This document shows positions 2,796-10,543 of a stretch of 31,918 bases of DNA, piece after piece; position 1 is the stretch's first letter; every line of letters starts with the position of its first letter. This DNA comes from Parcubacteria group bacterium. Its GTDB lineage: Bacteria; Patescibacteriota; Minisyncoccia; UBA6257; JACRHW01. A program made the translations under genes and the position numbers. The stretch covers positions 1 to 31,918 of the forward strand of contig JACRHX010000009.1 of the NCBI GenBank assembly GCA_016211955.1, given 5' to 3'. The notes under the pieces are model-generated. The model ran no database searches, had not been told where the DNA came from, and saw only the letters and a program-made list of their open reading frames with translations.

Positions 2796-3560
2796 ATGAA
2801 CATTCCTCTTCCTCAAGAACCAATTTTTGAAGATCAAAAAAATAACGTCGGCATTTTTAAGATAGAAGGTCTCTATTCTGGTTATGGTATTACGTTAGGA
2901 AACGCGCTGCGACGAGTTCTTCTTTCTTCTTTAGAAGGTGCAGCAGTTACGTCGTTTAAAATAGAAGGAGTCGATCATGAATTTACAACAATACCAGGTG
3001 TTCTTGAAGACGTTATTCAAATAATGCTTAACCTTAAAAAATTGAGAGTTAAGATTCTTAGCGATGGTCCGGAGACTCTTTTTATACGCGTAAAAGGAGA
3101 AAAAAAAATAACAGGACGCGACATTGAAAAGAATGCAAATGTAGAAATTATCAACAAAGATCTCGTACTCATGACAGTCACCGATAAAAAAGCCTCATTG
3201 GTTATGGAAATTACCGTAGCACATGGTCTTGGTTATCAAACATCAGATAAGATTCAAACAGAAAAACTTTCTATTGGCACCATCGCCGTAGACGCAATCT
3301 TTACACCAGTCAGAAGTGTTCAAGATTCAGTGGAAAAAATGCGTGTAGGAGAACGCACTGACTATGATCGTCTCGTTCTAAAGGTTGAGACAGATGGAAG
3401 CATTTCTCCTCAAGATGCATTTTCTGAAGCAGTAACAATTCTTATCAATCAATTCAAAGCACTTAACGTTGGAACGTCAGAAAATGAAAAAGAGACAGAG
3501 GATGTAACAGAAGAAGAGAGCGAGGAAAAACCTAAAAAAGCAAAAAAGGCAAAAAAGTAA
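2796..3560 (+). CDS. rpoA: RNA polymerase alpha subunit, N-terminal domain only (no alpha-CTD)
   Basis: GYG.TLGNALRRVLLSSL.GAAV...I.GV.HEF..IPGV.EDV; RVGERTDYD.L.L..ETDG.I.P. Only 254 aa, ending in an acidic then Lys-rich tail. Confidence 0.97.
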   Translation: MNIPLPQEPIFEDQKNNVGIFKIEGLYSGYGITLGNALRRVLLSSLEGAAVTSFKIEGVDHEFTTIPGVLEDVIQIMLNLKKLRVKILSDGPETLFIRVKGEKKITGRDIEKNANVEIINKDLVLMTVTDKKASLVMEITVAHGLGYQTSDKIQTEKLSIGTIAVDAIFTPVRSVQDSVEKMRVGERTDYDRLVLKVETDGSISPQDAFSEAVTILINQFKALNVGTSENEKETEDVTEEESEEKPKKAKKAKK

Positions 3561-4903: not shown

Positions 4904-5122
4904 GTATTGAGTATCTAGTATTTTGTATCTGGTATAGCCTTCCCTCCGGAGGACTATTAATTTTGTCATTCTGAGGCATCAGACGAAGAATCTCTCGTTT
5001 TCAGAATTAGCAAAAATAAAGAGATCCTTCGTTGCACTCAGGATGACATGTTATTTTTAATGTTTAAACACATCCACCGTAGACGGATTAATACTAGCTA
5101 CTAGATACAAGATACTAAATAC
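4904..5122. repeat. GTAT/ATAC heptamer inverted array enclosing a REP-like doublet
   Basis: Left arm gtattga-gtatcta-gtatttt-gtatctg-gtat (4904-4934); right arm atactagct-actagat-acaagat-actaaat-ac (5091-5122). Confidence 0.8.
4965..5047. repeat. REP-like doublet (GTCATYCTGAG...GAAGRATCT family)
   Basis: gtcattctgagg...gaagaatctct / agagatccttcg...ctcaggatgac in inverted orientation; relatives at 7112 and 18050. Confidence 0.85.
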
Positions 5123-7104: not shown

Positions 7105-7111
7105 CTCACCT

Positions 7112-7196
7112 GTCATCCTGAGGCATCAGCCGAAGGATCTCGCAATTTCAGTACTAATCTGAAAACGAGAGATTCTTCATTGTTATTCAGAATGAC
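7112..7196. repeat. REP-like doublet
   Basis: gtcatcctgaggcatcagccgaaggatctc ... gagattcttc...ttcagaatgac; its spacer is related in reverse to that of the 4965 copy. Confidence 0.85.
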
Positions 7197-7207
7197 GAAA
7201 AAAATTC

Positions 7208-8527
7208 ATGACGGCCAAACAAAAAAAAATAATTTTATACTCCGGAATAATTTTTGTATGTATGGTTATGTTATATACAACCACGCACGCAGCAGGAATT
7301 TTCGATAATCCTGACGTAGACCCATTACAGGGAAAGGACCTGCCTGATATTATAAACAATATTAATACCTTCATAAGAGACCTCGGGCTTGCCCTCGTTG
7401 TTATTTTTATTATCTATGGAGGTATTCAACTCATGACCTCAGGAGGCACTCCTGCAAAAATACAAGCAGGTCAAAATACGCTTCTCTATAGTGCAATCGG
7501 CCTCGGTGTTATTCTCCTAGCCCAAGGCCTCATCTATGCAGTTCTAGAAACTTTGAAAGTTAAGCCAGAAAATATGCCAAACCTAACACAGCAGGATCAA
7601 AATACAAACGATGATATAAAAGGAAATTTTGATGATACGCAATCTGTGGTAACAGACAATCCGGATGATACTAAGCAAGAAAATGCTATCCAAACAGTAG
7701 ACGATGAAGCATCAGCTGCTTTTGCAAGAAGTGGCGGAACCGGAACAGGAACACCAATTGTTGGCACTACGGACACCCAACAACTCACGGAAAGCATGAA
7801 TTGCGATACAGCAAAAACAAGTGCACGACTCGATACTTTGTTTACAAAGTGTCTCAAGGAATATGGTACTGGTCTAAAAATAGCTAGTAAAGCAACAAGT
7901 TTAATAGGAACAGAAACTCAAGCAGTCTCTTCATTGGGTGAGACAGGGGCTGCCCCAGGAGTGCGCTGTGCCCTTTTTACTGGTATAGCTGTCAATTCTG
8001 TGGTTCCAGGGGCAAAACTTACTCAATTAGCCCCCGAAAACTGGGCAAATCTTGCAGGAAAAAGATATGTCCCTTAACCAGGAGAATCAACCTCAAGTTT
8101 TGTATCAAAACTAACACCAGGAGCACAATTATTCTTTACCAATAACAGTACAGATAAAATAACGGGGGGGCTAGTAGGGCGTGGGGATAGTTATTCTGAT
8201 GATGGAAACTTGAGACGAAAAGATGGTTCAGCTTATTATCAACAAGGGGATCATGTTCCGCTTCATGTGGCAATTTATCAACCTTTTGTTACGATAACAG
8301 CTCAACAAGTTCAAGCTATCCGTACTAAATATCCTGATGGGAAAAATATCACCTTTCCACCAAAGAATAGTGATGGTACATATACAATAAGAAATGCAAT
8401 GATACACAACCAATCGGGTATAGTTGTGGTGGAATCTATATCGAACTACCAACAACGAAAAAAAATAGCAGCGGATAAAAATAATGTACAAAATGCAGGT
8501 GATTTTATGGGTGCAAAAATATACTAG
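7208..8527 (+). pseudogene. VirB2/TrbC-like (CPR T4SS-type) pilin fused to a putative NlpC/P60-superfamily domain, interrupted by one in-frame TAA at 8075-8077
   Basis: Pilin motif IIYGGIQLMTSGG.P.KI..GQ..L.YSAIG. The listed ORFs 7208-8077 and 8210-8527 share a frame, and the 44 codons between them have no stop. Joined C-terminus: RCALF...LTPGAQLFF...HVAIY...MIHN. Confidence 0.75.
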
Positions 8528-8556
8528 ACTGAATTAAAAATTCCTATCTTAGTTAA

Positions 8557-9561
8557 ATGATTAAAAAGATTTCTTTTTTTATTTTCCCCCTCCTTTTCCT
8601 TTTTTTATTTTCCCCTCTCACCACCTCCGCAGCGGGTCTCGTTTCTTGTACCGAACTCACCTGTAGTCTTTGCGATCTTCTCGTTTTAGTAAATACTATT
8701 TACCTCTGGATACTAGGAATCAGTGCCTTACTTGCTTCTGGACTCATTACCTTTGCGGGAATACAAATGATTGTAAATAGCGCAAATCCAGGAAAATCTA
8801 TTCAGGCGCGTGGGTTACTTATCCAAACCCTTATTGCGCTCGCTATTGTTTTTGGATCGTGGTTGATTGTAAGCGAAGTATTACGAGCGGTTACGGGGGC
8901 ACCAAGAGAGGATTTCTTTACGTTTAGTTGTAAATCACAGGCTCCGAAGTTTGCTGATAATCCGATTAAGGATGTGGGGGTGCGCTCGAGGCAGGACAAT
9001 AGCGAAAGTGTAACCAATGAAGGACCAGAAACACCTGGTGATGCAACGGTAGGATCTGGCGGGACAGCAGATGGAAAAACGATAGCTCAAAAGGCCATAG
9101 AAGTTAAAAACAAATTACCAGGCGATCTTGACTGCAGTGCATATGCTCAATACGTACTTAAGCAGGTCGGAATCAATGCTCCGAGAACGGCAGATTGGCA
9201 GGCTGGAAATCCTGAAGCATACAAAGGAGGAAAAATGACACCTATTCTTGGAGCTGGTCCAAACAATACAATAGGACCCGCAAATAATGGAACCCCTTAC
9301 TCCACAGATTCATCAAAAGGAAAGGGCACCAAACTTGATATGAGTAAACTTCAACCAGGCGATCTTGTTTTTTTTGGTCACACCACTCGTACTACAACTG
9401 CAGATAATACCGGAAGTAATGGCATAACTCATGTAGGTATCTATATAGGGAATGGTCAAATGATTCATGACGCCGCAGGAAGAGGTACTAAAACAGTACC
9501 CTTAAATACGGACTACTGGCGTGAAAAATTCTATGGCGCAGTAAGAGTCTCTGAACAGTAA
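8557..9561 (+). CDS. VirB2-like pilin fused to an NlpC/P60 (C40) cell-wall peptidase
   Basis: GLVSC....CSLCD pilin N-terminus with two TM segments, G/S/T linker, then DCSAYAQYV, LQPGDLVFF, HVGIYIGNGQMIHDA, YWREKFYGAVRV. Confidence 0.9.
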   Translation: MIKKISFFIFPLLFLFLFSPLTTSAAGLVSCTELTCSLCDLLVLVNTIYLWILGISALLASGLITFAGIQMIVNSANPGKSIQARGLLIQTLIALAIVFGSWLIVSEVLRAVTGAPREDFFTFSCKSQAPKFADNPIKDVGVRSRQDNSESVTNEGPETPGDATVGSGGTADGKTIAQKAIEVKNKLPGDLDCSAYAQYVLKQVGINAPRTADWQAGNPEAYKGGKMTPILGAGPNNTIGPANNGTPYSTDSSKGKGTKLDMSKLQPGDLVFFGHTTRTTTADNTGSNGITHVGIYIGNGQMIHDAAGRGTKTVPLNTDYWREKFYGAVRVSEQ

Positions 9562-9565
9562 TTTT

Positions 9566-10543
9566 GTGAAAAATAAATACTTAGTTTTTTTACTTGTTCT
9601 GTCGTCAATACCACTTTCTACATCAGCCCAGGGGCTTATTCCTTGTAGTGGTCCAAATTGTAGCCTTTGTGATCTTTTTGTCCTTGTTAATAACATTTTT
9701 CTATTTCTCGTGCAGTGGAGTCCGATTCTTGCTTTTTTCATTATCGGATATGCCGGTATTTTGATGATCACCTTTGGATCAAACTCCAGTAAGGTAAATC
9801 AAGCCCGGGGGATGATATGGACAACTCTCCAACGACTCATTATTATTTATTGCTCTTTTCTCATAGTAAACGTCGTGATTCATTTTGTTGTGGGCGAAAA
9901 CAAACTTGCCGGAACATGGTATAAATTTTCCTGTAAATCTACGGCCGCCCAATTTGCTAATACTGAAATTAAGAATGTGCAAATACATTCAAAAGATGAT
10001 GGAAGAGGGGGTATTGTAGGCGGAGGAGGTGCCGGAACAGAATATTTAGGAGGTGGGTCGCCCGGCGGAGGAAACAACGATGCGGTAGCAAATGAGGCAC
10101 TAAAACAGGTTGGACGAAGTAGTTACAAATATAATAGCGATGCGGGCAACGCTTGTGCGAGTGTTGTGAGTACCGTACTTATCAACCAAGGAGTAATGCA
10201 AAAAAGTGAATTTCAAGCTGGCGTAGGAGGACTTGCAACGAAACTTTATGCACAAAAAGGATATACAACTATTATTACTGATCCATCACAACTACGCCCA
10301 GGGGACATTGTATTTGTAAACCCACACAGTCTAGATGGGAAGACAAATAGTCTATACCCCAACAAGGATTTACAAAACCTACTCAAAAAGAGAGGTGTTG
10401 AGCCATGGCACGTGGGCATATGGACAAATACGGGTCTCGTTAATAACAGTACCAGCCAGCTTAAGGTAGCAAAATGGAGTGGCGTTAAGCCCCTAGGACA
10501 AGGTGGGTTTGAGCAAATGGCTTTTGCTCTTAGAAAACAATGA
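9566..10543 (+). CDS. VirB2-like pilin fused to a divergent NlpC/P60/CHAP-like amidase domain
   Basis: GTG start; GLIPCSGPNCSLCD pilin, Gly-rich linker, then NACASVVSTVL, LRPGDIVF, HVGIW, VNNST (Cys-His-Asn order). Confidence 0.85.
   Translation: MKNKYLVFLLVLSSIPLSTSAQGLIPCSGPNCSLCDLFVLVNNIFLFLVQWSPILAFFIIGYAGILMITFGSNSSKVNQARGMIWTTLQRLIIIYCSFLIVNVVIHFVVGENKLAGTWYKFSCKSTAAQFANTEIKNVQIHSKDDGRGGIVGGGGAGTEYLGGGSPGGGNNDAVANEALKQVGRSSYKYNSDAGNACASVVSTVLINQGVMQKSEFQAGVGGLATKLYAQKGYTTIITDPSQLRPGDIVFVNPHSLDGKTNSLYPNKDLQNLLKKRGVEPWHVGIWTNTGLVNNSTSQLKVAKWSGVKPLGQGGFEQMAFALRKQ

Follow-up and report, generated by a model that had tools for sequence, protein, structure and literature searches.

Members of the candidate phyla radiation (CPR) are already known to encode arrays of type IV secretion system (T4SS) pilins (PMC10633639, PMC12102498, PMC12857230). 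The one Patescibacterium that is genetically tractable requires the T4SS, together with its pilin array, for epibiotic growth (PMC10633639). In most classes, the homologues found of VirB1, the wall hydrolase of such systems, are not closely linked to virB4 (PMC12102498). Monoderm VirB1 proteins fall into the domain classes CHAP, SLT, MUR and LytM (Fig. 3 of PMC12857230). Pilins fused to hydrolases are not mentioned in these three papers and were not found by full-text literature searching. Here, a cassette of three pilin genes with C-terminal extensions is described. It is located in a stretch of 31,918 nt (hereafter, the window; contig JACRHX010000009.1, positions 1 to 31,918) of the genome assembly GCA_016211955.1 of a Parcubacteria group bacterium (702 kb, 67 contigs, 84% complete). 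Comparison with relatives indicates that the pilin-like carrier of this cassette is conserved and that its C-terminal domain, mostly a predicted peptidoglycan hydrolase, is exchanged. The cassette may well supply wall-opening hydrolases, equivalent to VirB1, to the T4SS pilin system of these bacteria.

The three open reading frames (ORFs) lie on the plus strand in the same direction (Table 1), and their coordinates agree with a preliminary description of this DNA, which had given three co-oriented genes with gaps of 29 and 4 nt. All three genes are built alike: a signal peptide precedes a T4SS_pilin hairpin of the VirB2-like type, which a disordered linker of 50–80 residues connects to a C-terminal domain (hereafter, the tip). 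The papain-like tips that had also been proposed for all three genes were recovered together with the pilin modules and linkers in genes 2 and 3, while the tip of gene 1 is only weakly papain-like.

The T4SS_pilin family (PF18895, curated cut-off 26.6 bits) was matched by gene 1 (E = 4e-11, 43.3 bits) and gene 2 (E = 2.6e-5, 24.6 bits in hmmscan and 28.7 bits in a six-frame search of the genome). The match of gene 3 was faint and below the cut-off (E = 0.35, 11.4 bits). The gene 3 module matches the profile of the pilin subfamily at E = 8e-62, and over the 135 N-terminal residues it shares 44% identity and the C..CxxC...FxC pattern with gene 2, as expected from the earlier claim that these two pilins are homologous. 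At the DNA level, no repeats common to the two modules were found. As modelled with AlphaFold2, gene 3 contains a signal helix (residues 2–19), helices 34–69 and 74–109 with pLDDT above 90, the last cysteine in a small hairpin and a disordered region at 127–169. The VirB2-like nature of the N-termini was therefore supported by PF18895 for genes 1 and 2 and by the modelled hairpin for gene 3, in which the PF18895 signal itself was faint.

The tip of gene 2 is predicted to be a canonical NlpC/P60 domain with a Cys-His-His triad (NLPC_P60, PF00877, E = 9.3e-19, 67.8 bits with a cut-off of 23), and the canonical C40 type listed in the preliminary description is present here. The tip of gene 3 is below every curated threshold: Pfam and NCBIfam gave no match, and a search of PDB chains gave chance-level hits only. 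When the gene 3 model was compared with PDB structures by Foldseek, no match at E ≤ 0.001 was obtained; note that the helical hairpin dominates this model and that the tip has medium confidence. Feature look-ups in the ESM Atlas gave leads only, namely NlpC/P60, CHAP and Amidase_5 clusters among phage hypothetical proteins. Together with tips from relatives, the gene 3 tip forms a five-member family (A6). Its profile matched that of NlpC/P60 with a probability of 95.5% (E = 1.6e-8), and C197, the PGD strand, H282 and N294 were in register; the A6 member of a congeneric genome (G002, see below) matches NLPC_P60 at E = 9e-5. The probability against the CHAP-type tips of relatives was only 9%, and no CHAP match was found in genes 1–3 or elsewhere in the genome. 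Because the NlpC/P60 match aligns the catalytic residues and the CHAP match is poor, the gene 3 tip is best regarded as a divergent NlpC/P60 domain, and its former assignment as CHAP-like was rejected. The predicted enzymes of genes 2 and 3 look active in this genome. A Cys-His dyad, expected in all three tips, is aligned in genes 2 and 3; in gene 1, only weak alignments bring the two residues into register, and a stop codon lies between them.

Gene 1 was taken in the preliminary description to encode an intact catalytic domain, as were its two neighbours, and this has to be corrected: an in-frame TAA leaves a product of 289 aa and a tail of 149 codons in the same frame, and falls between the candidate Cys and the candidate His of the tip. 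Recoding of the stop codon was rejected, since TAA is the usual stop in the window, where it terminates 19 of 24 long ORFs or genes. The same TAA was recovered, with zero differing letters and at a word depth of about 4, from the groundwater metagenome run X1, in a contig that had been assembled independently. An assembly error was rejected on these grounds, although the depth is low and X1, which contains 94% of the region, is probably the source sample. An intact ortholog of 412 aa (P0121) occupies the syntenic position in a related genome and is 47% identical to gene 1 from end to end, including both halves of the tip. As far as its sequence tells, gene 1 is a genuine gene that a nonsense codon has inactivated. 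The gene 1 tip had no Pfam match and no PDB sequence match other than at chance level. An AlphaFold2 model of the read-through product was poor (pLDDT 41.6), with the same helices as in gene 3 at lower confidence. In hhalign comparisons, weak matches (20–24% probability, E of about 1e-3) aligned Cys254 and PGAQLFF of gene 1 with both the gene 3 family and the CHAP-type tips, and the sole match to NlpC/P60 was local (16 columns, 3% probability), so the tip was not assigned to that family. It is probably papain-like.

To evaluate the conservation of the cassette, this genome (G000) was compared with four genomes of the same family (G001–G004) and three metagenome contigs (L027, L028 and L029). 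The order murA, mscS, pilin 1, pilin 2, pilin 3, fmt is kept in all five genomes and in L027 and L028. Outside the family, eight genomes of the same order were compared, and the stretch fetched beside fmt contained no pilin in any of them. Across the family loci, the pilin modules at each position are 49–73% identical, and most pairs of tips have no significant similarity; the homology of the carriers stops right after the FxC motif, that is, at the start of the linker. At position 1, tip A is found in G000 (broken) and G004 (intact), a CHAP domain in G002 (E = 2.4e-10), and no tip at all in G001, G003, L027 and L028. Position 2 is occupied by NlpC/P60 in G000, by a gene 3-type tip in G001 and L027, by a glutaredoxin-pilin-NlpC/P60-like protein in G002, by an unassigned tip in G003 and, across a scaffold gap, by a CHAP-like tip in G004, which is 49% identical to the position 1 tip of G002. 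Position 3 carries a gene 3-type tip in G000, an unassigned tip in G001, a glucosaminidase-like tip in G002 (E = 3.6e-6, below the cut-off) and lysozyme/SLT-like tips in G003, G004 and L027 (weak Pfam matches). Tips also switch position: the gene 3 type is at position 2 in G001, and CHAP is at position 1 in G002 and at position 2 in G004.

The closest view of such an exchange is given by L029, a JGI contig on which the pilin 2 module is present twice; the copies share 97% identity as proteins and 90% as DNA (dS 0.55, dN/dS 0.02). These near-identical carriers bear different tips, namely Peptidase_M23 (E = 3e-8) and a C39_2-like domain, and pilin 2 modules of this type (73–96% identity) bear two more tips in proteins from other samples (P0002 and P0006). 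On sequence evidence, the carrier hairpin is under strong purifying selection, and the enzyme domain is swapped by recombination just after FxC. The tips clearly vary between relatives, and the idea of a conserved carrier with a variable tip, put forward in the preliminary description, is strongly supported by the syntenic loci of four genomes and three metagenome contigs and by the survey of 150 clusters given below. Tips can also disappear: in five of the eight position 1 genes (seven loci), the tip was lost or broken without replacement, and the nonsense codon of gene 1 fits this recurrent loss in relatives. Because pilin 1 orthologs without a tip are kept in G001, G003, L027 and L028, the comparison suggests that the pilin module has a role of its own.

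Some further observations were made on the cassettes of relatives. In the position 2 carrier of G002 (L016:5786–7063), the pilin module follows a glutaredoxin/thioredoxin-like domain (CGAC motif; PF00462, E = 5.5e-7), itself behind a signal peptide. Considered with the four near-invariant cysteines on either side of the hairpin (C31, C36, C39 and C125 in gene 2), this fusion suggests that extracytoplasmic disulfides tie the two ends of the pilin module. In G004 (L014:2559–3998) and G002 (L016:4380–5771), the cassette is interrupted by a small transmembrane (TM) protein of 83–99 aa and a TM-anchored PD40-type beta-propeller protein of 374–378 aa. The beta-propeller proteins of the two genomes are 55% identical, and both inserted genes are absent from the window. 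In the G004 assembly, a run of N (scaffold gap) lies between the pilin 2 module and the CHAP-like tip (L014:1570–2590). Repeated pilin modules probably break assemblies, and the copy numbers of pilin genes in metagenome-assembled genomes are therefore likely to be underestimated.

A wider survey was performed with the pilin-module profile against 1.84 billion representative proteins, which gave 9805 clusters at E ≤ 0.001; the best 150 of these were examined. Among them, 63 were pilin-only and 84 had at least 90 residues C-terminal to the module, forming 38 similarity groups. The tips recognised by Pfam in these 150 clusters were mostly peptidoglycan hydrolases: SLT (10), SLT_3 (8), VanY/M15 (7), C39_2 (2) and M23, NLPC_P60, Glucosaminidase, Destabilase and Phage_lysozyme2 (one each), in addition to some Ig/fn3 domains. 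The earlier view that the tips are papain-like only was thus too narrow, as the wider family includes lytic transglycosylases, lysozymes, M15 and M23 metallopeptidases and a glucosaminidase. Forms with and without a tip occur within a single pilin subfamily. This subfamily was found in 58 of the 61 sampled genomes of the order, and 31 genomes encode one or more copies in frames of at least 250 aa.

The genome contains nine PF18895 matches. A candidate for the cognate VirB4 or assembly locus, which the preliminary description had proposed to look for, was located on a separate contig (C10, L011), where a VirB4-like ATPase (TraG P-loop, E = 1.4e-24) is encoded two genes from a pilin-domain protein. 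The ATPase is 84–96% identical in four relatives, as compared with 63–80% for Fmt; between G000 and G002, the corresponding values are 96% and 78%. In G002, a full T4SS operon with PrgI, VirB4 and a pilin-domain protein was found within a few genes of dnaA/rnpA/yidC, a location already published for CPR, and it contains no Pfam-recognisable wall hydrolase. Hydrolases not fused to pilins are also encoded by the genome, namely an NlpC/P60 protein on contig C45 and M23 peptidases. Other pilin genes of this genome include a tandem array of four short pilins of 107–156 aa on contig C32 (37–1696, L013) and a gene on contig C44 (421–1593, L012) for a 390-aa protein, in which a long N-terminal region rich in Ala, Gly and Asn leads up to a C-terminal pilin module (residues 318–380). 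On C10, VirB4 has a TM beta-propeller protein as its neighbour; this was considered as a relative of the cassette beta-propellers of G002 and G004, and no kinship was detectable.

The window is part of the core chromosome. It contains the end of the ribosomal operon, murA, a small mscS gene and the cassette, followed by the convergent fmt, def and priA and, further along, by genes for an M23 peptidase, MurG, FtsW, MraY and a DD-carboxypeptidase; the wall-synthesis genes murA, murG, ftsW and mraY are indeed present as described before. A mobile island was rejected, as no tRNA gene was found in the window, the GC content is flat (0.40–0.41) and synteny is conserved. No obvious immunity gene adjoins the cassette, as had been stated, and gene 3 is followed by the convergent fmt. 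No orphan tip-immunity cassettes were found downstream, and small unannotated ORFs (83–156 aa) are present within the cassette of some relatives. The spacer between mscS and gene 1 is an 88-nt palindromic element (7111–7198) with a predicted RNA fold of −32.7 kcal/mol (z = −4.8). Its 30-nt left arm is repeated with three mismatches after rpsI (4965–4994). The word depth of this arm in the metagenome runs is about 100-fold, as against about 5 for genes, and its flanks are many and different; it is therefore a short dispersed repeat common to many genomes in the sample. RpoA, encoded at 2796–3560, is only 254 aa long, and its Pfam matches are restricted to the N-terminal and insert domains.

Table 1. 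Positions of the cassette genes and their parts in the window
Feature	Position (nt)	Strand	Remarks
Gene 1 (signal peptide, T4SS_pilin module, T/D/N/Q-rich linker, "tip A")	7208–8527	+	In-frame stop; encoded product 289 aa (7208–8077)
Gene 1, T4SS_pilin module	7340–7540 (residues 45–111)	+	PF18895 match
Gene 1, candidate nucleophile Cys254	7967–7969	+	Motif PGVRCALF; upstream of the stop; conserved in P0121
Gene 1, in-frame TAA	8075–8077	+	Truncates gene 1; P0121 has AAA (Lys), one base apart
Gene 1, candidate His353	8264–8266	+	Downstream of the stop; conserved in P0121
Gap between genes 1 and 2	8528–8556		29 nt
Gene 2	8557–9561	+	
Gene 2, signal peptide and VirB2-like pilin module	8557–8961	+	Near-invariant Cys31, Cys36, Cys39 and Cys125
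Gene 2, low-complexity linker	8932–9111 (residues 126–185)	+	Composition
Gene 2, NlpC/P60 domain	9124–9546	+	PF00877
Gene 2, triad C193, H292, H304	9133–9135, 9430–9432, 9466–9468	+	Alignment with 13 NlpC/P60 proteins
Gap between genes 2 and 3	9562–9565		4 nt
Gene 3	9566–10543	+	
Gene 3, signal peptide and pilin module	9566–9964	+	Helices 34–69 and 74–109, then a small hairpin bearing Cys123
Gene 3, Gly-rich linker	9935–10081 (residues 124–172)	+	Predicted disordered
Gene 3, divergent NlpC/P60-like tip	10082–10540	+	Profile-profile comparison
Gene 3, candidate triad C197, H282, N294	10154–10156, 10409–10411, 10445–10447	+	Alignment

All these characteristics allow us to assume, with about even confidence, that the family-conserved cassette provides, from a locus of its own, the pilin-tethered, wall-opening hydrolases of the Patescibacteria T4SS pilin system, that is, an equivalent of VirB1. 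This is assumed because the enzyme classes match those of monoderm VirB1 proteins (PMC12857230), because the T4SS operon of G002 lacks a recognisable hydrolase and because no obvious immunity gene is present. Each fusion protein would be exported by Sec. Since the inter-helix loop with its Lys and Arg residues is predicted to lie inside the cell, the C-terminus with the enzyme would be outside, where the tips would hydrolyse peptidoglycan. The pilin module may bring the enzymes to the pilin pool or to the site of T4SS assembly; the peptidoglycan would then be opened locally, and the machine or a pilus could cross the wall. Several redundant and interchangeable enzymes would share this VirB1-type job, with the cell's own wall as the minimal target and the host wall at the contact site as a possible one. 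A number of points weigh against this assumption. Tip turnover is very fast, with every position differing between genomes, and a variable external target explains this more easily than the cell's own wall does. The cassette is located outside the T4SS operon, its neighbours are housekeeping genes, the window also contains genes of wall synthesis, and the genome is just 84% complete. The absence of a hydrolase from the G002 operon was judged by Pfam only, and three large proteins of this operon (1041, 838 and 472 aa) have no Pfam match. A complex prediction for the gene 2 module with three copies of the short C32 pilin scored 0.00 and is uninformative either way.

It is also possible, if rather doubtful, that the fusions are host-directed enzymatic minor pilins, which would co-polymerise in an extracellular T4SS pilus and use their outward, swappable enzymes to breach or loosen the host wall; the diversity of the tips would then follow the chemistry of that wall or an arms race. 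How fast the tips turn over is better explained in this way than by a VirB1 equivalent: tips are replaced fast between congeners, even on carriers with 97% identity, while strong purifying selection acts on the carrier itself. The presence of several paralogs per genome with different bond specificities, and of tipped and tipless forms in one pilin subfamily, points in the same direction. In F and T pili, the termini of VirB2-type pilins are exposed on the pilus surface, which also speaks for display. Saccharibacteria depend on their pilin arrays for epibiotic growth, and the presence of a pilus has been suspected in them (PMC10633639, PMC12857230). For the organisms considered here, a pilus and the co-assembly of the fusions are still hypothetical; in addition, no immunity gene was found though sister cells have peptidoglycan, and the position 1 tips were lost or broken unreplaced in the majority of genes. 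If the fusions do reach a pilus, one may tentatively imagine a CPR T4SS filament that carries them as minor subunits and drills host peptidoglycan at attachment. Tip exchange would tune the enzymes to the host wall, and a disulfide linking the N- and C-terminal parts of the module would take the place of the head-to-tail cyclisation known from classical VirB2/TrbC pilins, which would free the C-terminus for cargo.

Two other explanations do without a pilus. The pilin-like hairpin could be a mere membrane anchor of housekeeping autolysins, which would act as space-making or division hydrolases on the cell's own sacculus and be unrelated to the T4SS. The core chromosomal site beside murA, its conservation in the family, the genes for MurG, FtsW, MraY, the DD-carboxypeptidase and the M23 peptidase in the window and the distance of the T4SS genes from the cassette are in line with this. 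We consider it unlikely, as the carrier exceeds the curated cut-off of T4SS_pilin and its close relatives are stand-alone pilins, while a dN/dS of 0.02 and four near-invariant cysteines are unexpected for a mere anchor. Moreover, orthologous housekeeping enzymes are not normally swapped for cutters of other bonds among species of one genus, gene 1 is dispensable, and the genome has other hydrolases without a pilin fusion (the C45 NlpC/P60 protein and M23). Secretion as interbacterial toxins, with the pilin module as a T4SS export signal for bacteriolytic effectors against competitors, appears very improbable. The layout, in which a variable C-terminal enzyme follows a conserved N-terminal module, would suit such toxins, and the enzyme classes are the same as in wall-degrading effectors of T6SS and T7SS (type VI and type VII secretion systems). 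Against this, immunity genes and orphan tip-immunity cassettes are missing downstream, the Sec signal peptide and two TM helices predict retention in the membrane, not release, and CPR genomes are minimal and host-dependent.

The pilin-hydrolase cassette is a testable lead on how host-dependent, ultrasmall groundwater cells pass cell walls. The widespread fusion family gives concrete, assayable candidates for the way in which the machine crosses the cell's own wall or that of the host, and it is a naturally occurring case of a VirB2-type pilin with cargo. In genomes, the repertoire of tips could come to indicate the wall type of the host.

Comparison with known systems indicated that the cassette shares features with several of them. 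Like the CPR VirB2-like pilin arrays (Wang et al. 2023, PMC10633639; Quinonero-Coronel et al. 2025, PMC12102498), it consists of tandem divergent paralogs with PF18895, and a monoderm-type VirB4 is encoded in the genome. Unlike these arrays, which are described as containing pilins only, it encodes pilins that bear enzyme domains of about 150–250 aa, and it sits away from virB4, between murA-mscS and fmt. VirB1-type hydrolases (PrgK of pCF10, TraG of pIP501 and CwlT of ICEBs1) resemble the fusions in being membrane-anchored, extracytoplasmic enzymes, a topology predicted here from the signal peptide and hairpin. The catalytic classes are also the same across the fusion family, namely CHAP/NlpC-P60, SLT, muramidase/glucosaminidase and LytM/M23. 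However, the anchor of VirB1-type proteins is a single N-terminal helix and not a VirB2-like hairpin, and several domains are combined in one protein, whereas here there is one enzyme domain in each of several paralogs. In addition, the cassette genes are outside the T4SS operon (mscS-fmt), and their enzyme domain is exchanged between close relatives.

Polymorphic toxins and modular phage endolysins likewise combine a conserved module with a recombining enzymatic domain and a breakpoint at the linker. In the cassette, the conserved part is a membrane hairpin or pilin instead of a trafficking or wall-binding domain, and the immunity genes and orphan cassettes of polymorphic toxins were not seen. 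With regard to NlpC/P60 enzymes (MEROPS C40: MepS/Spr, CwlO, LytE and RipA), the gene 2 tip is a clear member (Cys-His-His) and the gene 3 tip a distant one (Cys-His-Asn); the partners of the catalytic domain in enzymes of this type are LysM, SH3 or coiled-coil regions, and here the partner is a pilin module. What the locus adds to these known systems is a triple cassette outside the T4SS operon, with tips that move between carriers by position, 97% identical carriers that bear different enzymes and recurrent loss of tips, including a fresh nonsense allele.

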